A stretch of 51,886 bases of DNA from a virus (taxonomy: Duplodnaviria; Caudoviricetes): the IMG/VR virus record IMGVR_UViG_3300030380_004241, positions 1-51,886 of that record. One strand, written 5' to 3'. The first letter of the stretch is position 1. Each line of letters opens with the position of its first letter. This document shows positions 5,341 through 38,576 of the stretch, piece after piece. The notes beneath the pieces were generated by a model, which was given only the letters and a program-made list of their open reading frames with translations, made no database searches and was not told where the DNA came from. Both the position numbers and the translations under genes were made by a program.

Positions 5341-5420
5341 AGTATCGCCTTTTCTGGGATAAAAGGCAACAAAAAAATAACAAGAAAGTGATTTTTCTTT
5401 TCAGCGAAAACAAAGACTTA
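5341..5420 (-). promoter_or_regulatory. Composite early promoter copy 2
   Basis: -35 TTGCCT (5364-5369), 17 bp, -10 GATACT (5341-5346); box AAGAAAGTGATTTTTCTTTTCAG (5382-5404); AAACAAAGACTTA (5408-5420) overlapping the dnaE stop codon. Confidence 0.82.
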
Positions 5421-8231
5421 TGTCAACTTACGAACTTTCTCTACATATATTTTTCTGAATCCTTGTCTGATCTGACCTTTTACCAAGTACCAATCACCAA
5501 GCCTTCCGTCCTCAACGATTGGCTTACCCATGCGTGAATATTTGAAGCGATCAATGGTTGCAATGATTGGGCCAGTGTCATCCTCAAAAGTTAAGTTGAG
5601 CCACAGATTATTCTTATCAACCCTGCGACCACCACGCTTGGCAAGGTTGACAGTCTCGTTCATGTCTCTCAAGTTTTTCTCTTTGAGCTTGCCGAAAAAC
5701 ACAAATGTTCCTGGAGTGTCAGCATCAAGCTCTTGAATGTCAGTTATGGCAGAAACTATGTTGTGCGAGGCAGGATCAGCCTTGATATGCCCGAACCTCC
5801 TCTCACACTCAAAAATATCGTCGTAGGGTGTTGTACCGTTGTCCAGGAGCGACTCTTGCCGAGGAGTCAGAGGTTGTGCCATCTCACGTCTGTTAACGAT
5901 GTCCTCAGCCATTTTTGGACCGATACCTTTGATGCCCATCAATCCACCTATCAGAGCACCATCCTGCACAGACCAGTTCTGGGTTGACTTGAATTTGTCA
6001 AATGGCTTGTAGCTGAGACCTTCCTTGACGACCTCACGCAAAAGCCTGACTGCTTGTTCGTCATCTTTGACGTTGCGCAAACATGCTGCGGCAAACTCCA
6101 GGGGGAACTTGCTCTTGAGTACGCAACACCAGTAGCTGACCATGCCATATGCGATGGCGTGTGATCTGTTGAATGCCCATGAGCCCATTGTGTTGATGTT
6201 GTCCCAGATGCGTTGGGCTTGATCTTCTTCAATATCATTCTCAGCTGCACCAACTTTGAACCTTTCCCAAAAGGTATCAAAATATTCTTTTCCGTATGAC
6301 TTGGACATTGCTTTGCGGAGGGTTGATACATCTTCCCATGAGAGCTTACCCACATCTCTGGCTATTGTCATGACTTGTTCCTGATACACAACAACACCAT
6401 TGGTGACCTTTGTGATTGTCTCAGTCATTGGGTGAAGATACTCAACAGGCGATGAGCCGACATGCCTTTTGATAAACTGAGTTGTGCCACCTGAGTTGAG
6501 TGGTCCAGGACGAGCCAAAGCAGTAATCGCTGCAATGTCTTCAAACTTGTGCACTTTCATCTGCCTTGTCACTGACTGAAGAGCATAGCCTTCAAACTGA
6601 AAAATACCTGCGTACTTTTCATCATTCAAAACTTTGAATGCCTCCTCATCCTCAAGAGGATAGTTGATCAGCTGATCACGAGTCCAACCGACTTGATCAA
6701 GCACATCTTGCAAAACTGAAAGAGTCCTCAGCCCCAAGGCATCAATCTTCAGCAGATTAAGATCCTCAGCATCCTTTTTGTCAATCTGGGTTGCACCTGT
6801 CTGACCTGATACAGAACAATACTGACTAACAGGCTTTTCAGTGACAATGATCCCTGCGGCATGAACACCATTGTGACGTGCATGGTTCTCCATGTCTGCG
6901 GCAACTTTGATCTGTGGGTACTTTTCCAAGACCTGCCGACCAATGTCAAGTTCGTTGAATGTATCAAGTATGCAAAATGCAGCACGAGAGTCGCCAGAGC
7001 TTCTTTCAATGATTGCACCTTTGAGATCATTTACCTCCCAAGCAGGTATGCCTAGCTCTTTGGCAACTTCTGCGATTGTGCTTTTGGCTTTGTAGCGTGA
7101 CACAGTTCCGAGGTGAGCAACCTTTTCCGCTCCATACTTTTGCCTCAGATACTCAAACACCATCTCTCTGCGGTCGTCTTGAAAGTCAATATCAATGTCG
7201 GGTAAGTCCTCACGAGTGATGTCAATGAATCGTTCAAACAACAAGTCATGCTCAATCGGGTCAATGTCAGTGATGCCAGTGAGGTAGCAAACCAATGAGC
7301 CAGACGATGAGCCTCGTGCTGGCCCAACGAGCATGTGTTGCTTGGCGTAGTTGATCATGTCAGCGATAACATAAAAGTAGTCCTCAAACTCTTTGTCAGC
7401 GATGAGGTTCAACTCTCGGTCAAGACGAGCTTTGTAAACTGGGTCGCTGAGATCAATGTTGCGAGGTGGTGCACCTTCCTCACACATTTGGCGTAAAGTC
7501 TTTTCAGCAACAAATGAAACCATCTGCGCAGTTGGCAACTCTGCGTTGCACATCTCGGCAATCTTGTAGGTGTTCTCAATGGCTGACTCTGGTGCCCATG
7601 GCACTGCGTCTCGCCACTCCCATTCATTCATTATGTGCATGGGTGCTGTGCGGTCTGTTCGGTTGCGACCAACCAGAACTTCATATGCCTTGCGGTCTTG
7701 CACTGTTGGGTAAAAGTTGTCTGAGGTTGCTACGACTTGAAAGCCTTTTTTCTCTGCAAAGTCCAAAGCCTTGCGAGTGCTCATTGGATTCAACTCAATA
7801 TAAAGAGTTTCTTTTTTGGCCAAAGGGAGCAGTCCCCAATCTGGGTTGGTTCCGCTCAAAATGATGACATTGTCGCTGATGTCAAACAAGTCCTCATAGC
7901 TCAGGCGAGGGTGATAATAAAAATGATCTTTGTCGGTGCTCTTTGTCACCAACTGATATATCTCTGTCAAGCCATCATTGTTCTTGGCAATGAAAGCCAT
8001 ATCGTTTGCGGGTTGCTTTGTCCGCTCAGTTGCATCTTCAACTATCGGTATCTCAACCCCAAGCAAAGGCTTCTTGTCAGCCTTTTTGCAGGCATGCTCA
8101 AAATTCACATGACCCCAAGTGCCAGAGTCGCATATACCGATAGCCGAACCACCGACAGAGTCAATGACTTTCTGCAGTGGTCCGTATGCTTTGCGGAAGC
8201 AGTATTCTGTTCTGGTGCGTATGTTCAACAT
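5418..8231 (-). CDS. dnaE: Family C DNA polymerase (Pol III alpha-like), 937 aa
   Basis: PHP-like N-terminus, GPARGSSSGSL, LLFERF, catalytic PDIDIDF and KIDALGL, GIFQFE, VYQEQVM, AFNRSHAIAY, HhH GIKGIG, C-terminal OB. Start moved to ATG 8231 (TAATG coupling). Confidence 0.97.
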   Translation of the reverse strand: MLNIRTRTEYCFRKAYGPLQKVIDSVGGSAIGICDSGTWGHVNFEHACKKADKKPLLGVEIPIVEDATERTKQPANDMAFIAKNNDGLTEIYQLVTKSTDKDHFYYHPRLSYEDLFDISDNVIILSGTNPDWGLLPLAKKETLYIELNPMSTRKALDFAEKKGFQVVATSDNFYPTVQDRKAYEVLVGRNRTDRTAPMHIMNEWEWRDAVPWAPESAIENTYKIAEMCNAELPTAQMVSFVAEKTLRQMCEEGAPPRNIDLSDPVYKARLDRELNLIADKEFEDYFYVIADMINYAKQHMLVGPARGSSSGSLVCYLTGITDIDPIEHDLLFERFIDITREDLPDIDIDFQDDRREMVFEYLRQKYGAEKVAHLGTVSRYKAKSTIAEVAKELGIPAWEVNDLKGAIIERSSGDSRAAFCILDTFNELDIGRQVLEKYPQIKVAADMENHARHNGVHAAGIIVTEKPVSQYCSVSGQTGATQIDKKDAEDLNLLKIDALGLRTLSVLQDVLDQVGWTRDQLINYPLEDEEAFKVLNDEKYAGIFQFEGYALQSVTRQMKVHKFEDIAAITALARPGPLNSGGTTQFIKRHVGSSPVEYLHPMTETITKVTNGVVVYQEQVMTIARDVGKLSWEDVSTLRKAMSKSYGKEYFDTFWERFKVGAAENDIEEDQAQRIWDNINTMGSWAFNRSHAIAYGMVSYWCCVLKSKFPLEFAAACLRNVKDDEQAVRLLREVVKEGLSYKPFDKFKSTQNWSVQDGALIGGLMGIKGIGPKMAEDIVNRREMAQPLTPRQESLLDNGTTPYDDIFECERRFGHIKADPASHNIVSAITDIQELDADTPGTFVFFGKLKEKNLRDMNETVNLAKRGGRRVDKNNLWLNLTFEDDTGPIIATIDRFKYSRMGKPIVEDGRLGDWYLVKGQIRQGFRKIYVEKVRKLT

Positions 8232-8302
8232 TATTGAAGTGCTGCTTTGATCAGAATGAAAACCAATGCCCCGACGATTGAGCCTATTGTTGCTGGATCC
8301 AT
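8231..8302 (-). CDS. 23-aa hydrophobic micro-protein MDPATIGSIVGALVFILIKAALQ
   Basis: AAGGAGG RBS; TAATG overlap with the dnaQ stop at its start and with the dnaE ATG at its stop; fills the gap exactly. Confidence 0.75.
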   Translation of the reverse strand: MDPATIGSIVGALVFILIKAALQ

Positions 8303-8835
8303 TAGATGTGTCCCTCCTTTTTGTACCATTCAATTATGCGCACAGTTGCTTCAACGTCATTGATTGACCTGTGCGCTCCGTCAATCTTAGTTCCAAAAAG
8401 CTCCTCATGTATATCCCCGAGCTTTTTCTTTTTGCCCCAAACAGACTCACCAACCTCAACTGTGCAGATGTGATCATATGGCCATGGGAACTTTGTCAGC
8501 TTGTCAAGTCGTTCCAATTCAAACTTTAATATCTTGCGATCAAAAGGCAAGTTATGAGCGACGATTGTTTTCTCACCCAAAAAGAAATCACAAAGCCTGT
8601 AGTAACTAGCTATGAATGGCTTTTCATCTTTCAACATCTCGTCTGTGATGTTTGTGATCTTGATAATCTGCGGATCAAGCTGGTGCCCAGGATTGCAGAA
8701 GAACTCCAACCTATCAACTTCTTTCAAATCATCGTCGAGCTTGATAGCACCAAACTCAATGATGCGAGGTTGAATGTCTAGGTCAGAACCTTCGGCTTTG
8801 GGCAAACCTGTGGTCTCTAGGTCAAACACTATCAT
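8302..8835 (-). CDS. dnaQ: DEDDh 3'-5' exonuclease (Pol III epsilon-like)
   Basis: ExoI VFDLETTG, ExoII AHNLPFD, ExoIII AHRSINDVEA. Confidence 0.93.
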   Translation of the reverse strand: MIVFDLETTGLPKAEGSDLDIQPRIIEFGAIKLDDDLKEVDRLEFFCNPGHQLDPQIIKITNITDEMLKDEKPFIASYYRLCDFFLGEKTIVAHNLPFDRKILKFELERLDKLTKFPWPYDHICTVEVGESVWGKKKKLGDIHEELFGTKIDGAHRSINDVEATVRIIEWYKKEGHI

Positions 8836-9190
8836 CTTGTTCCCCTAGCTTGTTTGAGTCCAGAGCTTCAAGCATGAATGAATACACACCTGTGTCATGA
8901 ACCGAGTCAATAGTGCTCTCGCTGACGTTTGGCCAGTTCTGAGCATATCGGGTCAACTTGGCAACGATCATATTGACGATCCCGAATCTGTTCCAATCCT
9001 CAACTGTTTTAAGCTGAATGCCTTTGGGGAACAGAGCAGTCATGACCTGACCATGGGTCAGGTAGTTGTCGCCATATTGCTTGTTGCGTTGTTTGAATGT
9101 GCGAAGAGCTTCCTCGATGCAATCAATCGGGTGTTTGTTCTTCAGACTCTCTTTGCTCGTATCCTTCTTGACGACCTTTTTCCGTGCCAT
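8822..9190 (-). CDS. Putative all-alpha NTP pyrophosphatase (MazG/Nmad1/DUF6378-like)
   Basis: F-K-Q-R-N-K-Q-Y-G-D, K-L-T-R and D-S-V-H-D-T-G-V-Y motifs in an all-helical protein. Start chosen at 9190 after GGAG. Confidence 0.65.
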   Translation of the reverse strand: MARKKVVKKDTSKESLKNKHPIDCIEEALRTFKQRNKQYGDNYLTHGQVMTALFPKGIQLKTVEDWNRFGIVNMIVAKLTRYAQNWPNVSESTIDSVHDTGVYSFMLEALDSNKLGEQDDSV

Positions 9191-9380
9191 GTTCTTCTCC
9201 TTCCTCATATCCTTTTTCATAAGCCTCATCTATCTTGGCTTGTATTTCTTCTTCAGGTATGCTTGCTCTGTCTATCGCATCTTTCAACTGGTCAAGCAAT
9301 GTTGGTCTGATGTCAAATATGCGAGCAACCTTTTCCCTGTTAACTTCTATGTCGTTCCCGATTATCCTAATATCAACCAT
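9123..9380 (-). CDS. Hypothetical protein with acidic AYEKGYEEG repeats
   Basis: TGATG coupling to the HAD gene; GGAG RBS. Confidence 0.65.
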   Translation of the reverse strand: MVDIRIIGNDIEVNREKVARIFDIRPTLLDQLKDAIDRASIPEEEIQAKIDEAYEKGYEEGEEHGTEKGRQEGYEQRESEEQTPD

Positions 9381-9814
9381 CAGAAATCTCCTGGAGCTAC
9401 TTGCAGACAAGTGAGACCTTCACCTCTCCACATATCAACGACTGACTGTCTGTCCTCAAGCACGAACCAAATGTCTGACTCTTCAATGTGCTTTTGCATC
9501 AACTTCAGTTTACAAAAGTCATCAGACGATTGATCGTCAGCAGGTCTCATGATTAGCCTGTCACAAGGCACATCGTTCAGCCTCAGCCACTTGGCTGTGT
9601 CTTTGCGATGGCTCTCATCACGAGCAGTCATGATAACGATCTCAACCTCCCCACTGTGAAGTGCACGCAAAATGTTGCAGACATTTTCAATCGGCTTGTC
9701 GTTGATGCCTGCGGCATTGAATGCTTCATAATCACGCTCTTTGTAAAACTTCAAGCGATGCCCATAGTCGGAAAGTGTGCCATCAAGATCACATATGATT
9801 ATACGCTTGCCCAT
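9380..9814 (-). CDS. HAD-superfamily phosphatase (T4 PseT/PNK phosphatase-domain-like)
   Basis: CDLDGTL (DxDxT), IMTAR, MRP, EDRQSVVDMWR...GLTCLQVAPGDF. Confidence 0.9.
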   Translation of the reverse strand: MGKRIIICDLDGTLSDYGHRLKFYKERDYEAFNAAGINDKPIENVCNILRALHSGEVEIVIMTARDESHRKDTAKWLRLNDVPCDRLIMRPADDQSSDDFCKLKLMQKHIEESDIWFVLEDRQSVVDMWRGEGLTCLQVAPGDF

Positions 9815-10308
9815 GCTGGTGCCTCCGTATATTTGTATGTCCCGTTTTGAATGTGACCGATCTTCTCACCGACATAATAGTTGCGGTAAGACTGAACAGG
9901 GTCATCGACCTTGTATTGATCTGGCATGCCCAAATGAGGAGCAGTCAGGTCAGCAAAAGGTATGTTGTTGGGCAACTTGTTAAGGGCAGGGATCAGCGAT
10001 GCATGCTTGTGGTTGACTGGCTCTTTTTTCTTTGAGCCATAACGCTGATAATATTCCTTGGCGAGTTGCGTGACCATAACCAGAAGCCAGTTGTAGTTGG
10101 CTGCTGACTTCCTCACCCACTTTGAGCAAGGGTGGTTCTCGTAACCCATCGGGAACATGCCGACCTCGTCAGCATACTCATCGCCATCCAAGAACCTATG
10201 CGCACAACAAAGCATGAGCACAGACTCTGATATCATCTTATAAGAGTGCACGTCGCAGTGCATCTTTGCAGCGACAACAGGGTCGTCATCTAAGTAAAAT
10301 ATGTTCAT
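9799..10308 (-). CDS. Pyrimidine-dimer DNA glycosylase (DenV-related) family protein
   Basis: MNIFYLDDDP...HCD.H..KM..ES...L...NHPCSKWVR.S..NYNWL...EY..RYG...H...MPDQYK.DDPVQSYRNYY. Confidence 0.8.
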   Translation of the reverse strand: MNIFYLDDDPVVAAKMHCDVHSYKMISESVLMLCCAHRFLDGDEYADEVGMFPMGYENHPCSKWVRKSAANYNWLLVMVTQLAKEYYQRYGSKKKEPVNHKHASLIPALNKLPNNIPFADLTAPHLGMPDQYKVDDPVQSYRNYYVGEKIGHIQNGTYKYTEAPAWASV

Positions 10309-10328
10309 CTCATTTTCCTTTCTCAGTA

Positions 10329-10365
10329 TGTTTACTTTACTCTTTTTGAGTTGTCAGATCAAGCC
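10329..10365 (-). promoter_or_regulatory. Putative sigma70 promoter for the glycosylase-to-dnaE segment
   Basis: On the minus strand TTGATC-17 bp-TAAAGT just upstream of the CTGAGAAAGGA RBS. Confidence 0.5.
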
Positions 10366-10658
10366 TTCATCCCGAGAATCTTCTTTACACGACGAATCAC
10401 TTTATTGGCGAATGACACAGCTTCTTGAGTTTGCTGATACATCGCTTCAAGCTCTTTTTCTCTCTTTGGAGCTGGTGCTCTGGCGACGATGTTCTCTTTG
10501 GGCGATGGCTCTTTTTGATACAAGATGTATGAAAGCTGATTCTTAGTCAGCCCGAGCTTTTTCCCTATTGTGCTGTGGCTCTCACCAAGCTGTTTCATGT
10601 AATGAGCTTTATTGATTGTCTCTTGCTTGTATGAAGCTGAAAAACTTTTTTTAGGCAT
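10359..10658 (-). CDS. Small helix-turn-helix DNA-binding protein
   Basis: GESHSTIGKKLGLTKNQLSYIL HTH pattern; AGGAGG RBS. Confidence 0.7.
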   Translation of the reverse strand: MPKKSFSASYKQETINKAHYMKQLGESHSTIGKKLGLTKNQLSYILYQKEPSPKENIVARAPAPKREKELEAMYQQTQEAVSFANKVIRRVKKILGMKA

Positions 10659-10667
10659 TGATACCTC

Positions 10668-11312
10668 CTATTTGTTGAGTGCTTTGTACATTGATGGTGC
10701 TGCCCACTCAGTTGGGGTCAGGAAAGGCAAAGCCCAAGGGTGGACTTTTGTTACCTCTGCGACCATGAGTTTGAACACCTCTTGGTATTCACCTTGCGCT
10801 CTGGGCGACAGGCGAGACTTAGCCATCTCACTCAGTGTGCGCAGGTTGAATTTGGCAACGATGTTGGTATGAATGTTTGTTGGCAAAACGCCACGCGCAT
10901 CTTCAGCAGGAACAATGTCACGCAGTGCTTGGTAGGCTTCATTGATCTGCTTCATCGCATCATCATACAAAGCCTTGGCAACCTCATTCTCAGAGATGCG
11001 AGGTGGCGTGTAATATCCGAAGCCATGCATGTCGACTGTGCGTTGGGACTGCTGGGCATATGATGCTTGACGTGTTCGCACGAACTGATGGGTGAATCCT
11101 CTGCTGACATCACGGATGTTGAATGTGTAGTCAATGAACTCCCAAGATGAGCGGATTGTCTTGAGCATGTAGTCAAGCTCCTCCTGCTTTTTCTCCTCAG
11201 TCCATTCAGAGACCTTTGCGTAGGCATCTTCATCATTCATGAGGCGAGTGTTCTTCGTGAAGATGAGCAGGTTCACTGCATCATCGGTGTAATTTATAAG
11301 TTGGACTTTCAT
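10668..11312 (-). CDS. thyX: Flavin-dependent thymidylate synthase-like protein (variant motif)
   Basis: SSWEF, VSRGFTHQFVRTRQASYAQQSQR (R-H-R-x7-S changed to R-T-R-x7-S), EDARGVLP, NLR, AQGEY. Confidence 0.88.
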   Translation of the reverse strand: MKVQLINYTDDAVNLLIFTKNTRLMNDEDAYAKVSEWTEEKKQEELDYMLKTIRSSWEFIDYTFNIRDVSRGFTHQFVRTRQASYAQQSQRTVDMHGFGYYTPPRISENEVAKALYDDAMKQINEAYQALRDIVPAEDARGVLPTNIHTNIVAKFNLRTLSEMAKSRLSPRAQGEYQEVFKLMVAEVTKVHPWALPFLTPTEWAAPSMYKALNK

Positions 11313-11313
11313 G

Positions 11314-12258
11314 TTATTCTCCTTTCTGAGAGTGCATCAAACGAGCATAGTCCGAACTTGCTCGTATGAATTTTTCAACGTGCTGGATGTCTTCAACAAC
11401 ATCGTCCAGCAACAGTTGTCGCCAAGTCGCAAAGCGACCGACTGAATAAATATTATACTTGGTTGTCATCTCAAAGATGAATTGCTTTCTCAGCTCTTCA
11501 TTGATGGGTTCAATCTTGCCATACTTTTGGCTTGACTGTTTCATTTCAACAAGCTGATCAGGCTTGATTCCAAAGTCCTCAATCAAAGTAGTCATGATGT
11601 GTGGACCAATGCTTGTGTCAGGCTTGCGTATGAATTCAGAGATGACAATATCACCGATGACCGATATCCTGTAAAAAGGAACAGTTGGGTCGGGATAGTA
11701 GATAGTTTGATAAACATCACAATTTGGCGATTCAATGCGAGCCTTCTGAGTCCATATCTCTTTGTGTGGCCACTCAGGCACATCTTTCCAATTCATTATC
11801 TTCATGAGTGCTGGCATGGGTATGGTCGAGATGATGGGTCTGTGAGATTCCCACTCTCTCAACTCCTCAATCTCCTCAAGACTCAGCTTGCGCAAGTAAT
11901 CAATATTGCAGTTGCGAGCCATTTGATTTATCAAGTCCCATGGTGCGATGTATCGCTCAACAGGGTCAAGATTGTTGATTGACCTACTCAAGATCGAGCC
12001 TGTCACCTTTTGAGAATAAAGATTGCTCAAAAACAAATTTGGTTCAGTCAAAGTCTTGCCATCGTATTTTATAGCCTTTTGAACTTTGACCTTTTTGAAA
12101 GGGATGGCACACGCAGTGCCAACCCTGTCAGTTCTGAATCGGAGCAAAGCACCATGATTGTTTGGCAAGTCTTTTTGTGCTTCACATATGGTTGGCTTAA
12201 AGCTCCTCAGCATATTGCCTGCTAGCAATCCAGCCAGCCCTGCTCCGTATATCAGCAT
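11314..12258 (-). CDS. FAD/NAD-binding oxidoreductase (UDP-galactopyranose-mutase-like fold)
   Basis: N-terminal IYGAGLAGLLA Rossmann motif, ISTIP, C-terminal SVGRFATW. Confidence 0.82.
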   Translation of the reverse strand: MLIYGAGLAGLLAGNMLRSFKPTICEAQKDLPNNHGALLRFRTDRVGTACAIPFKKVKVQKAIKYDGKTLTEPNLFLSNLYSQKVTGSILSRSINNLDPVERYIAPWDLINQMARNCNIDYLRKLSLEEIEELREWESHRPIISTIPMPALMKIMNWKDVPEWPHKEIWTQKARIESPNCDVYQTIYYPDPTVPFYRISVIGDIVISEFIRKPDTSIGPHIMTTLIEDFGIKPDQLVEMKQSSQKYGKIEPINEELRKQFIFEMTTKYNIYSVGRFATWRQLLLDDVVEDIQHVEKFIRASSDYARLMHSQKGE

Positions 12259-12554
12259 ATGTTTAGCTCCTCACGCTTTTTGTTCTTCACTGCATAGAAG
12301 CCTTTTTTAGTCAGACCTTTGTCCATGTAGCTTTCTCGGTTGTCCATCCAGTGACCATACAAAACCTCATCAGTCTTTTCAATCAACTCTGGGTTTGCGT
12401 TGCCACCATGCTTCATAAGTTGGTCTCGGAGAATGCGGAGCAACTCATGCTGCTCCTTTTCTGCATTCATGAACCAAGTTTGATTGAGTCCTTCCCACAG
12501 CATGAAAACCTGCTTGGGGGTCAGATTAAGTTTGCAGATCCAACCCGAACTCAT
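12252..12554 (-). CDS. Hypothetical protein
   Basis: ATGA overlap with the upstream gene; start set at MSSGW. Confidence 0.65.
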   Translation of the reverse strand: MSSGWICKLNLTPKQVFMLWEGLNQTWFMNAEKEQHELLRILRDQLMKHGGNANPELIEKTDEVLYGHWMDNRESYMDKGLTKKGFYAVKNKKREELNIC

Positions 12555-13123
12555 CCTGAGACCTCTGCGTAGCCTTTGTTGATGTCCCAAGCAAGATCCT
12601 GACGACGACCACCTTGAGCGATGTAGGCTTCATAGCTCACAGGCTCACCAGCATTGATCAGGATGCCCATGGAATGGAAGCCATGAGTGTTCTGACGACG
12701 AGGGTTCTTGTCAACAAGACACTTGATCATCTTGCCTTCAAAGCCAGAGTTGCGACCACGCTTCTTGGGTGCGTCTGCAGTTTTGACGTGAACCTCAACA
12801 TCATTCCGCTGCTCAGTATTCATTTGTTTCTCTCCATTGAGTTTTTCAAAAGGTGTCTCTTCAATTGGCAGAGACTCAGCCAACTTCATTATGCGCTTTG
12901 AACCTGCGCGAATGTCCGAAAACCTTTTAACCACACCACTCCCAATCAAACGAGCATTGTCGTTGAAAACTGCGACGAGGCGTTGGTGGGTGGTGTTGCG
13001 GTTTTGGGCAAGCTCCTCAGGTGAGGAAAAGACTACCAACCCATTGCCCATCTGACGAGCTACACGCTCAGAGCTGAACGCACGGATGGTATTTTTCTTG
13101 TAGTCAATAGCGAATGCTTTCAT
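12551..13123 (-). CDS. Early protein, probable DNA-binding C-terminal domain
   Basis: First gene after the promoter at 13174-13243; C-terminal KKRGR...NPRR...GGRRQDLAWD motif seen in phage early proteins. Confidence 0.78.
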   Translation of the reverse strand: MKAFAIDYKKNTIRAFSSERVARQMGNGLVVFSSPEELAQNRNTTHQRLVAVFNDNARLIGSGVVKRFSDIRAGSKRIMKLAESLPIEETPFEKLNGEKQMNTEQRNDVEVHVKTADAPKKRGRNSGFEGKMIKCLVDKNPRRQNTHGFHSMGILINAGEPVSYEAYIAQGGRRQDLAWDINKGYAEVSG

Positions 13124-13173
13124 TGTTTCGTTTCCTTTCTCAAATCAGCCAGAACTTTCCTGACTGTCCCATT

Positions 13174-13243
13174 ACTATGCGCCAATTTGTCACAAAAGGC
13201 AACAAAGAAAGTGATTTTTCTTTTCAGTATTTTCAAAGACTTA
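13174..13243 (-). promoter_or_regulatory. Composite early promoter copy 3 (drives the nucleotide-metabolism operon)
   Basis: -35 TTGCCT (13197-13202), 17 bp, -10 CATAGT (13174-13179); 23-bp box at 13205-13227 identical to 5382-5404; TTTCAAAGACTTA at 13231-13243. Confidence 0.82.
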
Positions 13244-13258
13244 TAAATTTTTACGAAA

Positions 13259-14719
13259 TTAAATTGCATAGTGCCTCAAACTTTTTGGCCTTACGATGAA
13301 CAAGTTTTCTTTCGCTCTGGTCAATGCAACATACCAGACTCTGTTCTCTTCATCTGTGTGAGAGTTCTCCCAACTTAGCCGACCCATGTCCGTAGCCAAA
13401 ACAACATTGTCAGCTTCACCACCTTTGGACTGGTGGATGGTTGAGATGCTTATGCGAGGCTTGTCAGAAAACTTTTCGCCATTGCGCAAGCATGACCTTA
13501 AATATTCTCTTTCGTCTGGGGCAATGCCTTTGAGCATGCTCATCCAATCAAAGTTCTTGGCATCCTCAGGCAGACCCAAGTCTGTCATTTTGTAAGACTC
13601 TTGGCGAACTAGGTTGACAGTAAACCCGAAAAACTGTTTCACATTTTTGGCTTCATGAAGTGAGACTGATTGACCTTTGCGCAACCTTTCCCAAGTCATG
13701 ATCGCACGAGTCTCATCTGACTCAAGAGAGTGCTTGCCGTTGTAGGTGTATGCGAAGCCTTGTTGCCGAACTGCTTGCTGAAACCTGTTCATGAGATATT
13801 TACTTCGGCTCAAACACATCCAACTTCCATTGCCTGAAAAGTCTATCTGCTGTTCATCAGCCACATAGTCAACTGTGCCTTCATCAGTTCTTGGTCGCCA
13901 TGGCTTTGGGTAACGATGCCTGATGCGACTCACAACTTCTGCAGCCAACTTGTGGACTGATCTTGGGATGCGATAGCTTTGAGGCAGAACCATGCGGTCG
14001 CCTTTCAAAGTCAAAAATTTATTAACGTCTGCACCTGCCCAGCCAAAGATGGCTTGGTCGTCATCGCCAGCAATATAAACTTCCTCAGCACCCTCAGCTG
14101 CAATAATAGCCATTTTGTATTGAAGAGAGCTCAAGTCTTGAGCCTCGTCAAAAATGCAAATGTCAACAGGTAAAGGTGATGCGTACTTTTCCAACATGTC
14201 AGTGAAGTCCAACAGCCCATTTTCACGCTTGTAAGTTCTGAGGGCAGTGTCGTACTGTTTCACTGCATGCAAGGTCAGGTCATTAATGTTTGTTAGGTTG
14301 TGTTGTGTTTCAAGATCTCTCAGCCCAACCCTCGCCAAAGATTCAATCCTTGAACATTTGTCACCAAGCCCATCGCCAGTGTGAATTCCTAAGTCCTCAT
14401 CGTAGATGCCTTTGAACTCAACACCCAAAGCTCTGCCTAACTTGCGATAGTGTGCATTGGTCATAACCTCGTCTCTTTGCATGCCCAGCTCTCTGAATGC
14501 TAAAGAGTGTAGTGTTCTGAAGTAAGGAAACCTTCCCTCATCAAAACCAAACTGAGCCATCGCCCTTTCTTGGGCTTCGTATGCAGCTTTGCGGGTGAAA
14601 GCCAGATACGCTATTCTCTCAGGAGGAATCCCACGAGCTAGTGCGTCTTCGACTATGCGAAGCAGAGTTGTGGTTTTGCCTGTTCCTGGAGGTCCAAGAA
14701 TTATTTGTACTCTTCTCAC
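13259..14719 (-). CDS. UvrD/Rep-like SF1 helicase
   Basis: GPPGTGKT, LAFTRKAA, TLHSLA, DEAQD, AGDDDQAIF, QSYR, STIHQSKGGEAD, YVALTRAK. GTG start after AGAAAGGA. Confidence 0.93.
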   Translation of the reverse strand: MRRVQIILGPPGTGKTTTLLRIVEDALARGIPPERIAYLAFTRKAAYEAQERAMAQFGFDEGRFPYFRTLHSLAFRELGMQRDEVMTNAHYRKLGRALGVEFKGIYDEDLGIHTGDGLGDKCSRIESLARVGLRDLETQHNLTNINDLTLHAVKQYDTALRTYKRENGLLDFTDMLEKYASPLPVDICIFDEAQDLSSLQYKMAIIAAEGAEEVYIAGDDDQAIFGWAGADVNKFLTLKGDRMVLPQSYRIPRSVHKLAAEVVSRIRHRYPKPWRPRTDEGTVDYVADEQQIDFSGNGSWMCLSRSKYLMNRFQQAVRQQGFAYTYNGKHSLESDETRAIMTWERLRKGQSVSLHEAKNVKQFFGFTVNLVRQESYKMTDLGLPEDAKNFDWMSMLKGIAPDEREYLRSCLRNGEKFSDKPRISISTIHQSKGGEADNVVLATDMGRLSWENSHTDEENRVWYVALTRAKENLFIVRPKSLRHYAI

Positions 14720-16488: not shown

Positions 16489-17277
16489 CTACATTACATC
16501 ATCGTCTACAGACTCAGGAGAAACTTTCACATCACCAGCTGCAATTTCAGTTTTGAATTTGCGTGCGGCAAGATAAATTTCTTGACCTTGTGGGTGGTTC
16601 TGAATGATGCCCCCAGACTGTGCGTCATGGTTCATCTTAATAGACCAACCAAACCACGAGCCTTGATCATTCTCCTCAGGCACAGTTGTTAGCTGATATG
16701 AAGTCCAGAATGATGCTGGGTTGACCTTTTGATCACCAACTTTGATCATGAGGCGATTCATCATTGAGTTCCACTGACGAGCTTTTTTCAACTGCGACTT
16801 TGCCATTGAAAGTAGGGCTGGTGTGTAACCATTCTCATCAATCAAGAACACGAAGTATTCACCAGTGGGCACAATCTCATTGCCCTCATCAGTCAGATAC
16901 TCACCCCGACCACCACGAGTGCAGTTTTCAAGGCAAGCAGAGTCAGCACCGTGATCAGCGACCAAGCCACCTCTGTCTGCTTTCCATTCAATGTGTGCAC
17001 GTCTGTAGCTGATCGGCACGACTGTGATACCTTTTTCACCATCAATCGCTAGGTTGGCTACATTGTCCATGATCATTCCTGGCTCAGCACCATCAATGTA
17101 TGAACCATGACGCTTGTTAACTTGATCAGACATTTGTTGCAGAATCGTCAGGCGAGGAATAAGCATGTCCTCTTTGGTCATGCCTTCAGTTCCTGCTCCT
17201 GCATCCTGGAGCAAAATGCTCTCATCAAAAGCCACTACGTTTGATTCTTCTTTCTTTGCTACTTTATTTTCAGCCAT
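16489..17277 (-). CDS. Putative phage single-stranded DNA-binding protein
   Basis: IPRLTILQQMS, EW...GGLV, KKARQWNS, ENDQGSWFGW, acidic C-terminus DDDVM; located beside the primase. Confidence 0.62.
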   Translation of the reverse strand: MAENKVAKKEESNVVAFDESILLQDAGAGTEGMTKEDMLIPRLTILQQMSDQVNKRHGSYIDGAEPGMIMDNVANLAIDGEKGITVVPISYRRAHIEWKADRGGLVADHGADSACLENCTRGGRGEYLTDEGNEIVPTGEYFVFLIDENGYTPALLSMAKSQLKKARQWNSMMNRLMIKVGDQKVNPASFWTSYQLTTVPEENDQGSWFGWSIKMNHDAQSGGIIQNHPQGQEIYLAARKFKTEIAAGDVKVSPESVDDDVM

Positions 17278-17281
17278 GTTA

Positions 17282-17872
17282 CTATCTCCTTATGTTGGCT
17301 CTGCGTCCCATGTAAACACGGAACATTTCTATTGGAACATCCTTGCCTTCACTCAACCTCTCCCTAAGAGTGGCATTCAGCGATGAAGGATGGACTCCGA
17401 CTGCACGTTTGTAATAAAGTTTTTTCTCACGCAACTCTTCAGTGAAGGCATTGCATTTGTCATCTTCATTACGACCAAACTGAACCTCAACATTGCTTTT
17501 GATTAAATCACCAAGACCATTGTCCCGCAACCAATCAAAGCACTGCTGTTGGAGTATCCTCATTGCCTCTTTTTCATCCTCATCCTTGATACGATCAATC
17601 GCACCTTGTGATGGGACAGAGCCTTGGATAACATCTTTGACTTCAATCTTTGCACCATTGTTCAAAGTAAAGTCTTTGATGTTCAGTTCTTGCATCAAGT
17701 CAGGCAAGTCCTGTTCCGCCAACATCTTGAGATCCTGCTTCTTTTGCTTCAATGACTCGTCAAGTTTGTTAATCTCATTTTCAAGATCATACATTCTTTG
17801 AGCCATATCAGCGATCGCACCAAGTTCATTGGATGCTGGTGCCACATCCTCAAGCAGATCTATATCTGTCAT
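17282..17872 (-). CDS. Conserved phage replication-module protein (coiled coil, WLRDNGLGDLIK, VHPSSL)
   Basis: Family commonly found next to SSB-like genes; AGAAAGGA RBS. Confidence 0.75.
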   Translation of the reverse strand: MTDIDLLEDVAPASNELGAIADMAQRMYDLENEINKLDESLKQKKQDLKMLAEQDLPDLMQELNIKDFTLNNGAKIEVKDVIQGSVPSQGAIDRIKDEDEKEAMRILQQQCFDWLRDNGLGDLIKSNVEVQFGRNEDDKCNAFTEELREKKLYYKRAVGVHPSSLNATLRERLSEGKDVPIEMFRVYMGRRANIRR

Positions 17873-18236
17873 AGTCTTCCTTTCTCAGTTCGAGAGCTAC
17901 AGGCATGTACCAACCTTTTCGGCGATCCCTTTCACCCTCATCATTGTTACGCTCCCAGCGGAGCACTCTTACAGTGTTAGCCTTTTCACTGGCGATCATA
18001 CACGTGATCATCACAGCGATCGGGTCACCACCTCCTGGCCAGAGAAGATAATCCTCTGACGAGAAGTCCCTCATGATTCGACGAGCTTTTTGGACGCTTG
18101 GTCCTGGCAAAAACTGTGGTTTGTCATTGGGCTCAAAAACAATCTCAAGCGAGCCATATCTGCTGGCATCACTCAAGTCTGGCACCCAACCAAACTTATT
18201 TTTCACAGGTCGATTCACTACATAAACTTTTGGCAT
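17850..18236 (-). CDS. Conserved phage hypothetical protein
   Basis: AGAAAGGA RBS; alpha/beta pattern with DYLL..G..DP and VLRWER. Confidence 0.75.
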   Translation of the reverse strand: MPKVYVVNRPVKNKFGWVPDLSDASRYGSLEIVFEPNDKPQFLPGPSVQKARRIMRDFSSEDYLLWPGGGDPIAVMITCMIASEKANTVRVLRWERNNDEGERDRRKGWYMPVALELRKEDYDRYRSA

Positions 18237-18249
18237 CGTTTTTCCTTTC

Positions 18250-18582
18250 TCAGTGTATCCCTAGGTCTTTTAAGTCTTGCCCAGAAAACATTGCCTCTTC
18301 AAGTTCTTCATCAGACATCATATCAATTTGATTTATGGCTTGTCTGCGTTTCATCCTAGCAAGCCTTTTGTTCATTTGAGCTTTCTTTGCTCGCTTGATG
18401 TCAACTTTTGGCTTTGGCTTCACAGCCTTTTGTTTGACAGGCTTGTTATAAAAAATCTCAACTGTATGAAAAACAAAATTGCAACCTTGGCACCTACGTT
18501 TACGCACTGTAGAAAAGTCGTCATCACGAGGTCGTGAATCACAGACTAAACTTTTTGTACAATCGCACTTTGGGCATTTCAT
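18250..18582 (-). CDS. NrdR N-terminal-like zinc-ribbon protein (putative regulator)
   Basis: MKCPKC...VCDSR...VRKRRCQGCNFVFHTVE; no ATP-cone; first gene of the leftward arm. Confidence 0.8.
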   Translation of the reverse strand: MKCPKCDCTKSLVCDSRPRDDDFSTVRKRRCQGCNFVFHTVEIFYNKPVKQKAVKPKPKVDIKRAKKAQMNKRLARMKRRQAINQIDMMSDEELEEAMFSGQDLKDLGIH

Positions 18583-36312: not shown

Positions 36313-36993
36313 ATGACAACTTCAGGAACAGTCGCATTCAGACCAAACATTGAAGAGATCATTGCCGAGTCTTTTGAGCGAATCGGCATGGACTCTCAAG
36401 CCTTGACAGGCTATCAAGCTCGTGCAGCTCGCAGGAGCCTTAATCTTCTTTTCAGTGAGTGGGCTAACAGAGGAATAAACTATTGGGCGGTTCAGAATAA
36501 TACGCTGAATCTGACACAAGGGACAATATCTTATACACTTCCAGTTGGAACAATAGATCTTATTGATGTTGTTGTCAGAGAAACTGTTGGCGGCACTACC
36601 AATGATACAGTTCTTCAGCGAATCAGCATCTCTGAATACAACCAACTCCCGAACAAAACTTCTTCAGGACGCCCAAGCCAATACATGCTCGACAAGCAAT
36701 ATACACCTGTCCTTTATACTTGGCAGGTTGCTGACAGCAATGACTACAGTCTTGTTTATTGGTCAATCAATCAACTTGAAGATATCACAGCATCAAACCA
36801 AGATGCAGATGTCCCTTATCGCTGGACTGATTGCATTTGTGCTGGGTTGGCTAGCAAGCTGTCACTTAAATATATGCCTGATAAATTTAACTTGATGAGT
36901 CAAGTTTATGAAAGGGCATTTGAGTTCGCAGCAGCAAGTGATAATGATGGCGTAACAATGAGGATTCGCCCGACTGGTCTTAATTTAGGATAA
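36313..36993 (+). CDS. Head-to-tail adaptor / tail tubular protein
   Basis: ARRSLNLLFSEWANRGIN.W, Y..LPNK...GRPSQY, DVPYRW..CICAGLA. Confidence 0.78.
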   Translation: MTTSGTVAFRPNIEEIIAESFERIGMDSQALTGYQARAARRSLNLLFSEWANRGINYWAVQNNTLNLTQGTISYTLPVGTIDLIDVVVRETVGGTTNDTVLQRISISEYNQLPNKTSSGRPSQYMLDKQYTPVLYTWQVADSNDYSLVYWSINQLEDITASNQDADVPYRWTDCICAGLASKLSLKYMPDKFNLMSQVYERAFEFAAASDNDGVTMRIRPTGLNLG

Positions 36994-37952: not shown

Positions 37953-38576
37953 ATGAATTACACATCACTCGTTCAAAACATAAAAGATTTTATGGAAGAC
38001 GACTCAACAGAGTTCTCTAACTCTATAAACACAATAATCAGTCAAGCTGAGGAAATGGTCTTTCAGCGTTTGCCAAGCTTGCCTTGTTTTAGGAAAACAA
38101 CTACAGGCTCTCTGGTCATTGGCACTGCTGATTATGATGTAGCCAGTGCACGTATGATTCGTCAAGTTTCAATTACAAATTCAAGCAATGTTGAGTTTCT
38201 TGATCACCGCATTGATTCTTATCTGCGAGACTTTTCCCCGAACTCAGCAACAACTGGCAAGCCAACAATTTACAGCACCAAAGATGCTGATACTAGCGGA
38301 ATCACAATAACTTTGGCACCAACGCCAGATGCAACCTATTCTTTTCAAGTTGACTTCATAGCACCAGAAACTGGACTTTCTTCAAGTAATGCAAACAGTT
38401 GGATAGGTGATAATGCGGAAAATGTTTTACTTTCTGCGGCACTTTATGAAAGTTCTGCTTTTCTTAAAGCACCAGAGACGTTAAACTTATATAAGGGACA
38501 GTTTGATGAAGCTGTGCAACTGTTCCAGCAAGAAATGGCACGGAATTACACAGCTGAATATAACGGAGGCATATAA
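37953..38576 (+). CDS. Tail adaptor/connector-type structural protein
   Basis: MNYTSL...I.QAE...G.P..Y...LAPTPDATY...W.GDNA..VLL.AAL.E..AFLK. Confidence 0.75.
   Translation: MNYTSLVQNIKDFMEDDSTEFSNSINTIISQAEEMVFQRLPSLPCFRKTTTGSLVIGTADYDVASARMIRQVSITNSSNVEFLDHRIDSYLRDFSPNSATTGKPTIYSTKDADTSGITITLAPTPDATYSFQVDFIAPETGLSSSNANSWIGDNAENVLLSAALYESSAFLKAPETLNLYKGQFDEAVQLFQQEMARNYTAEYNGGI

Follow-up and report, generated by a model that had tools for sequence, protein, structure and literature searches.

Does the replication arm of a marine phage, in which genes for a flavoprotein and a divergent ThyX lie upstream of those for DnaQ and DnaE, encode a pathway for modifying thymidine in DNA? We addressed this question for IMG/VR record IMGVR_UViG_3300030380_004241, a single contig of 51,886 bp that was analyzed over its whole length (hereafter, the window) and is a complete or near-complete phage record (CheckV completeness estimate, 96%). 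On balance, we lean toward a reading, drawn largely by analogy, in which the flavoprotein, ThyX, a HAD phosphatase and a four-helix protein would form a flavin-based pathway to C5-substituted deoxyuridine (dU), that is, hypermodified thymidine, in phage DNA; a flavin-based thymidine hypermodification of this kind has not yet been described at the gene level. An earlier note on this DNA had proposed that the flavoprotein and the variant ThyX make a modified pyrimidine nucleotide. That core of the proposal gained circumstantial support from the linkage of the two genes, the residue pattern of ThyX, a fusion of a flavoprotein relative with a deoxynucleotidase, and the chemistry published for the Pbunavirus phages F8 and 14-1, whereas the pyrophosphatase, DenV and helix-turn-helix (HTH) roles that it had assigned to neighboring genes did not stand. 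Hypermodification of its DNA determines whether a phage can be stopped by restriction, CRISPR and modification-dependent nucleases, and such modifications are also a source of new enzymes and nucleotides for biotechnology. The candidate pathway that emerges from our analysis is a small set of strictly linked, virus-specific genes, with a ThyX member whose cofactor site is changed.

Linkage and distribution of the module

We inspected flavoprotein loci for a neighboring ThyX gene. Among close relatives, ThyX stood beside the flavoprotein in 80 of 80 IMG/VR loci and in all four loci of a first isolate set (PB1, Ralstonia phage PY059, Rhizobium phage TM30 and Pantoea phage Kyle). Distant relatives, which were 36–45% identical to the query flavoprotein, had it in 74 of 77 loci, and the three misses were contigs ending within ~1.1 kb downstream of the flavoprotein; four contigs were counted twice in the IMG/VR sets (L067/L160, L072/L140, L080/L147 and L081/L116). 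Further isolates added six loci, all with ThyX (Cronobacter phage Ss1, Aeromonas phage Gekk3-15, F8, 14-1, Burkholderia phage WTB and Vibrio phage VA-RY-3). A survey of 185,579 species genomes gave only 10 flavoprotein loci, all on contigs of metagenome-assembled genomes; ThyX was present in nine of them (the miss was cut at the contig end), DnaE also in six, and five lay on contigs of 42–59 kb. Co-occurrence across phages, which the proposal predicts, was therefore observed in every locus with enough flank. In a phage collection, the flavoprotein matched 362 records and ThyX 612. The two counts were identical for phages of Pseudomonas (292), Escherichia (27) and Serratia (9), and the surplus ThyX records were mostly those of actinophages and of Bacillus and Clostridium phages.

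The gene order of PB1 is that of the window: flavoprotein (ORF65), ThyX (ORF59), HAD (ORF57), DnaQ (ORF56) and DnaE (ORF55), which confirms the PB1-like set that the earlier note had mentioned. The window thus contains the Pbunavirus-type module, namely flavoprotein, ThyX lacking His53 (Thermotoga maritima numbering), HAD and four-helix proteins, DnaQ and DnaE, in one orientation. When 23 annotated genes of the F8 arm were searched, the window had matches (E ≤ 0.01) only to ORF53 (helicase), ORF54, ORF55, ORF56, ORF57 (both halves), ORF59 and ORF65. PB1 ORF57, Kyle gene 70 and TM30 gp205 are each fusions of a HAD with a four-helix domain; likewise, F8 ORF57 matches both the HAD and the 135-aa open reading frame (ORF) of the window. 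These fusions define a unit of four parts, consisting of flavoprotein, ThyX, HAD and the four-helix domain. In TM30 (207,623 bp), the flavoprotein, a ThyX with the motif RNR, and the HAD–four-helix fusion lie within 7 kb, and no DnaE match was found in a search in which PB1 and Ss1 did match, which indicates that the module can travel without the polymerase. An annotated homing endonuclease (8897–9547) directly follows the TM30 flavoprotein gene; together with small ORFs it separates flavoprotein and ThyX by ~2.4 kb, so that the two genes are linked there and not adjacent.

Pbunaviruses are among the phages most used therapeutically against Pseudomonas aeruginosa, and the DNA of F8 resists five enzymes with TG-containing sites (PMC12191111, bioRxiv 2025). 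By liquid chromatography–mass spectrometry, virion DNA of F8 and 14-1 was reported to hold new nucleosides of 362 and 390 Da, which substitute for roughly a quarter of T (in TG context) and were read by the authors as tetrose-alcohol and cyclised pentose derivatives of thymidine (PMC12191111). The statement of the earlier note that the DNA of such phages has been described as modified is thus true for F8 and 14-1. According to the accessible part of this source, Pbunaviruses do not carry the genes usually used to predict hypermodification; that part names no biosynthetic genes, and "thymidylate", "ThyX" and "flavin" occur 0 times in it (PMC12191111). Wifcevirus genomes carry the module as well, and these phages are described as resisting restriction without a known mechanism. 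Within the accessible text of the publications retrieved, our literature search found no gene assignment for the Pbunavirus modification and no link of the ThyX family to DNA hypermodification. For the Pbunavirus parallel, the chemistry has thus been published, and no genes have been assigned to it. By analogy, the flavoprotein, ThyX, HAD and four-helix genes are leading candidates for the modification chemistry of Pbunaviruses, and the module in the window would be a marine counterpart of the sugar-type thymidine modification of F8 and 14-1.

The likeness between the window and F8/14-1 lies in the flavoprotein–ThyX–HAD/four-helix–DnaQ–DnaE module and its shared order. The window differs in being a 52-kb marine phage with podovirus-type adaptor genes, in having HAD and four-helix proteins split into two ORFs, and in a ThyX without the Cys-rich C-terminal extension of PB1. 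This extension, which may be a metal-binding domain, occurs in PB1 (11109–12026), Aeromonas phage Gekk3-15 (15001–15762) and a Gordonia "ThyX-like" protein (142–1239). Between F8 and 14-1, the flavoproteins are 97.3% identical, ThyX 93.8%, ORF57 80.8% and ORF70 56.9%, with most replication-arm proteins at 92–100%. The ORF57 linker has an acidic AEDA-repeat indel between the two phages, and ORF70 differs in length (398 vs. 434 aa); Pfam gave nothing informative for ORF70, ORF66, ORF69 or ORF71. Either ORF57 or ORF70 could have to do with the difference in adduct mass or with the inhibitor of END nucleases that the preprint mapped.

Proteins of the module

The flavoprotein carries the dinucleotide motif GAGLAG at its N-terminus and matched no Pfam family at E ≤ 0.01, including GLF. 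We obtained an AlphaFold model from a 21-sequence alignment (predicted local distance difference test [pLDDT], 83.6; predicted template modeling score, 0.78). Its nearest Foldseek neighbors in PDB were bacterial UDP-galactopyranose mutases (UGMs; E 6.6e-10, TMq 0.58–0.62). VIA-align ranked eukaryotic UGMs at the top (Z 18.6, root-mean-square deviation 4.2, 299 residues aligned), tied within 1 Z unit with protoporphyrinogen oxidase (PPOX; Z 18.1, 287 aligned), and amine oxidases scored about Z 16. As a description of the model, "UGM-like", the label already given in the earlier note, is therefore borne out as the best single one, although it is not exclusive, given the tie with PPOX.

A profile of the flavoprotein searched against PDB gave a weak match to the T. 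cruzi UGM 4dsg (E 0.042), with ISTIPMP, YRxS and GRFATWR aligned. The invariant Y196-R197-x-S199 falls on FYRATV of 4dsg in this weak hidden Markov model alignment, and the arginine of the (F)YRxT/S-V strand in UGM is an active-site residue. Other invariant arginines besides R197 are R40, R42, R92, R102 and R275. The likeness to UGM thus comprises the best structural neighbor, the GxGxxG motif and the weakly aligned ISTxP, (F)YRxxV and GRFxxWR(Y) motifs. The differences are that the flavoprotein is only 12–15% identical and has no GLF match, that it has 314 aa as against 360–510 aa, so that part of the substrate-binding domains must be missing, and that its gene context is nucleotide metabolism, not glycan synthesis. 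UGM works through a flavin-N5-sugar adduct (an iminium).

The flavoprotein family contained 2076 proteins (90% clustering) at E ≤ 0.001 among 3232 candidates, corresponding to 1030 cluster representatives at 50% identity, and these numbers make the gene set widespread in marine viromes. None of the 120 matches listed had a Pfam domain. Atlas clusters of flavoprotein look-alikes were 95–100% viral, and some carried Amino_oxidase domains; the flavoprotein family is virus-restricted. One metagenomic relative (P0144, 506 aa) consists of a YfbR-like HD-domain 5'-deoxynucleotidase (PF12917, 8.3e-12, above the cut-off) fused to the flavoprotein (residues 191–501), which ties the flavoprotein to deoxynucleotide metabolism. 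This fusion also parallels the separate HAD phosphatase of the window. A complex prediction for two copies of ThyX with the flavoprotein (score 0.00, mark 0.32) returned no verdict and is evidence neither way.

ThyX of the window covers the Thy1 (PF02511) profile from 1 to 191 of 191 at 144.8 bits, compared with a cut-off of 24.8 (144.7 bits when the genome was searched again). The canonical form of the ThyX signature is RHRx7S; here it reads RTRQASYAQQS, in agreement with the RTRx7S noticed from the sequence beforehand. We aligned the protein to T. maritima chains (TM0449 structures) and six other viral ThyX, and tallied residues over 159 flavoprotein-linked ThyX in T. maritima numbering. E58, Q75, R78, R80, R90, R147 and R174, dUMP- and FAD-site residues among them, were invariant (159/159), and the window has equivalents of Q75, R78, R80, S83, R90, R147, N163, R165 and R174. 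In contrast, His was never found at position 53 (Ile in 155, Val in 3, Leu in 1), nor Tyr at position 91 (Thr in 104, Val in 25, Ile in 11, Met in 8, Ala in 6, Leu in 4, Gly in 1). The middle residue of the RHR motif, His79, was replaced by Thr in 142, Asn in 5 and Ser in 3, with His in 9 (L155 and L156 of IMG/VR among them), and the motif ended at position 88 with Ser in 112, Ala in 26 or Thr in 21. In the window, His53, His79 and Tyr91 correspond to Ile53, Thr80 and Thr92. Compared with typical ThyX, the clade therefore has RTR (or RNR/RSR) for RHR and "TIxSxxEF" for the segment "GH.S..EH" that holds His53 and His59. Since 9 of the 159 keep the RHR histidine and none keeps His53 or Tyr91, RTR is a less reliable clade marker than the loss of the latter two. 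Among the six other viral ThyX, four have equivalents of both His53 and Tyr91 (GH..S..EH, S-x-R-Y); these positions are occupied by Tyr and Phe in the ThyX of STSV2 and by Leu and Phe in the Gordonia "ThyX-like" protein. A further difference from other ThyX is that this clade is always paired with the virus-specific flavoprotein in flavoprotein loci with enough flank.

According to the available part of the ThyX literature, His53 makes a stacking contact with the pteridine of folate; Tyr91, which is conserved and probably acts as a general acid, is the proposed acid for dehydration of a flavin carbinolamine intermediate, and its mutation slows flavin oxidation 1000-fold (PMC11940539). The nucleotide site is thus retained in this clade and two residues of the carbon-donor half-reaction are lost, which suggests an altered donor or an altered outcome.

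The same pattern bears on a simpler explanation, ordinary nucleotide supply, in which a divergent but working dTMP synthase would boost dTTP, the flavoprotein, HAD and four-helix proteins would serve, for example, redox support, nucleotide salvage or end repair, and the Pbunavirus modification would be made by other genes. This would sit well with a full-length Thy1 match far above its cut-off, with the retention of every dUMP-site arginine, and with the frequency of ThyX in phages with unmodified DNA (many of the 612 matching phage records are actinophages). HAD_PNKP domains, as the Pfam name tells, are known from end-healing enzymes, and F8 and 14-1 carry different modifications despite a nearly identical module, ORF70 being the divergent protein. 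Nevertheless, we regard both the dTTP-boosting part and the accessory roles as unlikely: the folate-stacking His and the Tyr, loss of which slows the reaction 1000-fold, are kept in 0 of 159, and this reading would not explain why ThyX is obligatorily paired with a flavoprotein confined to viruses, including in a phage that has no DnaE, or why that flavoprotein is fused to a deoxynucleotidase. If the module nevertheless turned out to be nucleotide supply only, it would reveal a large ThyX subfamily working without residues thought essential for the folate half-reaction.

The fourth partner is the 135-aa protein. Its AlphaFold2 model (pLDDT 79.9) has helices at 34–52, 55–66, 76–96 and 104–129, and the conserved core spans approximately residues 34–129. 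The N-terminal 24 residues are modeled with low confidence and are not conserved, and many relatives start ~30 residues further in; the true start may thus be internal, and the 150-nt gap that separates this gene from the HAD gene would then be wider. The earlier note had called this protein all-alpha and like a nucleoside triphosphate (NTP) pyrophosphatase. The first half of that label agrees with the four-helix model. For the second half, we found no Pfam match at E ≤ 1 and no MazG, no MazG- or dUTPase-type match in a profile search against PDB sequences, and nothing at E ≤ 0.001 (best E 1.1) in a Foldseek search of the model against PDB. Across 21 relatives, MazG was matched in none and DUF6378 weakly in eight (best E 0.007). 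Foldseek matches in BFVD were instead the C-terminal domains of HAD proteins in Kyle, EC150 and MTx. We therefore dropped the NTP-pyrophosphatase label, Pfam, the PDB profile and Foldseek against PDB and BFVD having given no MazG- or dUTPase-type match. A pyrophosphatase that clears the competing dNTP is accordingly not supported, because this protein is not recognizably an NTP pyrophosphatase. As a separate observation, Kyle has a 96-aa ORF with weak MazG matches (E 0.0045).

Two myovirus lineages have additional genes at this place. In Kyle and in Gekk3-15, the HAD gene and dnaQ are separated by a short-chain dehydrogenase (adh_short 2.9e-37 in Kyle), which is adjoined by a weakly supported glyoxalase/VOC-like protein (in Kyle by Glyoxalase_4, E 0.018; in Gekk3-15 by the annotation of the record only). 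The coordinates of these genes are 13101–13778 and 13923–14468 in Kyle and 17195–17884 and 17914–18408 in Gekk3-15. The dehydrogenase and glyoxalase-like proteins are possible tailoring enzymes.

Proposed pathway and competing readings

In the pathway that we favor, the ThyX paralogue would still bind dUMP and would carry out flavin-N5-mediated C–C chemistry at C5 with an altered or non-folate donor, or with an altered outcome. The flavoprotein would prepare or attach a carbohydrate-like group, and the HAD domain might dephosphorylate an intermediate or a competing nucleotide. Host kinases together with the phage DnaE and DnaQ would then bring the product into DNA, or a further step at the DNA level would set the sequence context.

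The known route to thymidine hypermodification comprises a ThyA-type dUMP hydroxymethylase, a 5-hydroxymethyldeoxyuridine (5-hmdU) DNA kinase, aGPT-Pplase/AADT and tailoring enzymes; in the available part of the source, known hypermodifications are finished post-replicatively and some pathways include tailoring flavoenzymes (PMC8989533). The two routes would share their target (C5 of a dU/T nucleotide in phage DNA), a partial substitution of T and, in some cases, flavoenzymes. They differ in the carbon-transfer enzyme, which here belongs to the ThyX family and not to the ThyA family. No ThyA-family protein was found in the window: ThyA (PF00303) had no match at E ≤ 0.1 anywhere in the genome, in a search whose controls were positive in 10 of 14 genomes, and thymidylate kinase and trimeric dUTPase likewise had no Pfam match in the genome. 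No P-loop kinase, glycosyltransferase or aGPT-Pplase/AADT turned up among the 30 window ORFs that were scanned with Pfam, families that were not searched by accession.

A bolder version, to which we give little credence, is a flavin-only route to a sugar-bearing thymine by ThyX and the UGM-fold flavoprotein. In it, the flavin-N5 iminium chemistry of ThyX would join C5 of dUMP to C1 of an aldose (phosphate) in place of the folate methylene; the UGM-fold flavoprotein would open or activate the aldose, and the fused HAD domain would then strip the sugar phosphate. We compared masses using 228 for dU, 242 for thymidine and 258 for 5-hmdU. Ethers of 5-hmdU give 258 + 122 − 18 = 362 and 258 + 150 − 18 = 390. 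A reductive C–C adduct of a pentose, 5-(1-deoxypentitol-1-yl)-dU, gives 228 + 150 − 18 + 2 = 362, and a dehydrative hexose adduct, a cyclised C-glycoside, gives 228 + 180 − 18 = 390. The published masses therefore fit both 5-hmdU ethers and dU C–C adducts. If the adducts were C–C linked, the flavin-iminium chemistries of ThyX and UGM types would converge, and thousands of marine phages of ~50 kb would share, with the therapeutic Pbunavirus and Wifcevirus phages, a C–C-linked glycityl- or glycosyl-dU made by a new enzyme reaction.

Several points weigh against the flavin-based pathway to C5-substituted dU. It rests on association and on predicted chemistry, for a marine phage known from its sequence, and the link between module and modification is guilt by association with chemistry from two phages only (F8 and 14-1). 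Within the supergroup of DnaE phages, the module is inherited with the replication genes, and much of the linkage is shared ancestry; there was no DnaE phage without the module among PB1, F8, 14-1, Kyle, PY059, Ss1, Gekk3-15, WTB and VA-RY-3. Synthesis of dTMP need not depend on His53 and Tyr91, as the Tyr and Phe of STSV2 ThyX illustrate. Sugar chemistry is not established for the flavoprotein by the fold of the model, in which UGM is tied with PPOX and close to amine oxidases. The window has no thymidylate kinase, in line with the earlier remark that no nucleotide kinase is evident, so that host kinases would be needed. Moreover, the F8 and 14-1 adducts differ though flavoprotein and ThyX are near-identical; hence the module alone cannot fix the final structure. 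Finally, confinement of the modification to TG and to ~25% of T calls for a sequence-reading step at the DNA level. A nucleotide-pool pathway alone does not explain this confinement; the dUMP-phosphate arginines of ThyX point to a mononucleotide substrate, unlike a TG-reading step, and Pfam recognized no DNA-binding domain in any module protein.

The loss of the folate-stacking His also raises a folate-independent synthesis of ordinary dTMP, in which the amine-oxidase-fold flavoprotein would generate the one-carbon unit, as formaldehyde or an iminium, by oxidizing an N-methyl compound. The phage would thereby no longer depend on the folate of its host. ThyX can take free formaldehyde as carbon donor, and the fold neighbors of the flavoprotein include amine oxidases and PPOX (Z 16–18), along with Atlas look-alikes that have Amino_oxidase domains. 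A flavin carbinolamine intermediate, as described in the accessible part of the ThyX literature (PMC11940539), would suit such a donor, but Tyr91, the proposed acid for its dehydration, is lost as well. Neither the HAD/four-helix partner and the deoxynucleotidase fusion nor the modified thymidine of module-bearing Pbunaviruses would be explained, and we consider this route quite improbable.

We similarly give a low probability to action at the DNA level, in which the flavoprotein, perhaps with the HAD/four-helix protein, would act on the thymine or uracil of TG sites once the DNA has been replicated, with ThyX supplying dTMP or a 5-substituted dUMP: the TG specificity and ~25% substitution in F8 demand a DNA-reading enzyme, the flavoprotein has many invariant arginines, and known thymidine hypermodifications are, in the available part of the source, completed post-replicatively (PMC8989533), but Pfam detected a DNA-binding domain in none of the module proteins and the deoxynucleotidase fusion points to mononucleotides. 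Also counting against it is the chemistry required: we know of no precedent for a flavin acting on an unactivated methyl group of thymine.

Gene run and accessory genes of the window

The module lies in the left arm of the genome, a leftward block of replication and nucleotide genes. In transcription order, it starts with proteins like gp32/33/34 of Pam3, an archaeo-eukaryotic primase (AEP), a UvrD helicase, two ORFs of unknown function, the flavoprotein and ThyX, and continues with the 99-aa ORF, the 169-aa phrog_624 protein, the HAD phosphatase, the 135-aa protein, DnaQ and DnaE; a 171-aa ORF, a cell-wall hydrolase and an SNF2 helicase lie beyond. Neighboring ORFs of the run mostly overlap or are <50 nt apart, so that it is tightly coupled, as had been noted; the exception and sole sizeable non-coding stretch is a 150-nt gap (9229–9380) between the HAD ORF and the 135-aa ORF. 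What the earlier note had observed of this run was largely right, the labels DnaE, DnaQ and HAD being backed by strong Pfam matches, and three of its eight labels are unproven.

Table 1. Genes from DnaE to the flavoprotein in the window, with the matches that identify them
Feature	Position	Strand	Evidence
DnaE-type DNA polymerase III alpha	5418..8333	-	Pfam DNA_pol3_alpha 1.1e-70, finger 8.3e-40, PHP 7.8e-11; phrog_405 1.5e-249
DnaQ-type 3'-5' exonuclease	8302..8835	-	Pfam RNase_T 1.1e-25; phrog_192
135-aa four-helix protein, distant DUF6378-like domain	8822..9229	-	phrog_4889 C-terminal part 7e-18; AlphaFold2 model
144-aa HAD phosphatase, PNKP/IIIA type	9380..9814	-	Pfam HAD_PNKP 4.8e-32
169-aa phrog_624 protein, accessory	9799..10308	-	phrog_624 7.6e-43
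99-aa ORF, accessory, poorly conserved	10359..10658	-	no Pfam family; phrog_16311 3e-4
214-aa ThyX-family protein, RTRx7S	10668..11312	-	Pfam Thy1 3.5e-42, 144.8 bits
314-aa FAD-type flavoprotein, UGM/PPOX/amine-oxidase fold	11314..12258	-	phrog_4828 5.7e-73; GAGLAG; AlphaFold model

Two genes inside the run had been named a DenV-like glycosylase and an HTH protein. The former, the 169-aa ORF, gave one sub-threshold match to Pyr_excise (E 0.0092, 16.8 bits against a cut-off of 23, residues 54–90 only), and phmmer found no relative in PDB, so the label was not confirmed. For the latter, the 99-aa ORF, the Pfam and PDB searches returned no family or relative and the PHROG search lent the HTH label no support. 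The 169-aa protein was found in 61 of 84 near loci (0 of the 4 isolate loci there) and in 9 of 77 distant loci, and the 99-aa ORF in 17 of 84 near loci. Because both are poorly conserved with the module, we treated them as accessory and outside the conserved core, which leaves membership of the DenV-like and HTH genes in the pathway unsupported.

The right arm encodes a terminase, a portal, a major head protein, two SU10-adaptor-like proteins and tail-fibre-like proteins. The SU10-adaptor-like paralogues (PF24175) lie at 36313–36993 (+; 5.4e-9) and 37953–38576 (+; 5.1e-19) with a 317-aa ORF between them, and are consistent with a podovirus-type neck. In the left arm, the Pam3 gp34/gp33/gp32-like trio (16489–18236, −; PF23977 9.6e-56, PF23984 8.8e-28 and PF23992 4.7e-19) adjoins the AEP primase, and its gp34- and gp33-like proteins are co-conserved in many module-bearing loci, including those of Ralstonia phage PY059 and Burkholderia phage WTB. 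A 190-aa ORF two genes upstream of the flavoprotein (12551–13123, −) has no Pfam family; 67 of 84 near loci and several distant loci retain it.

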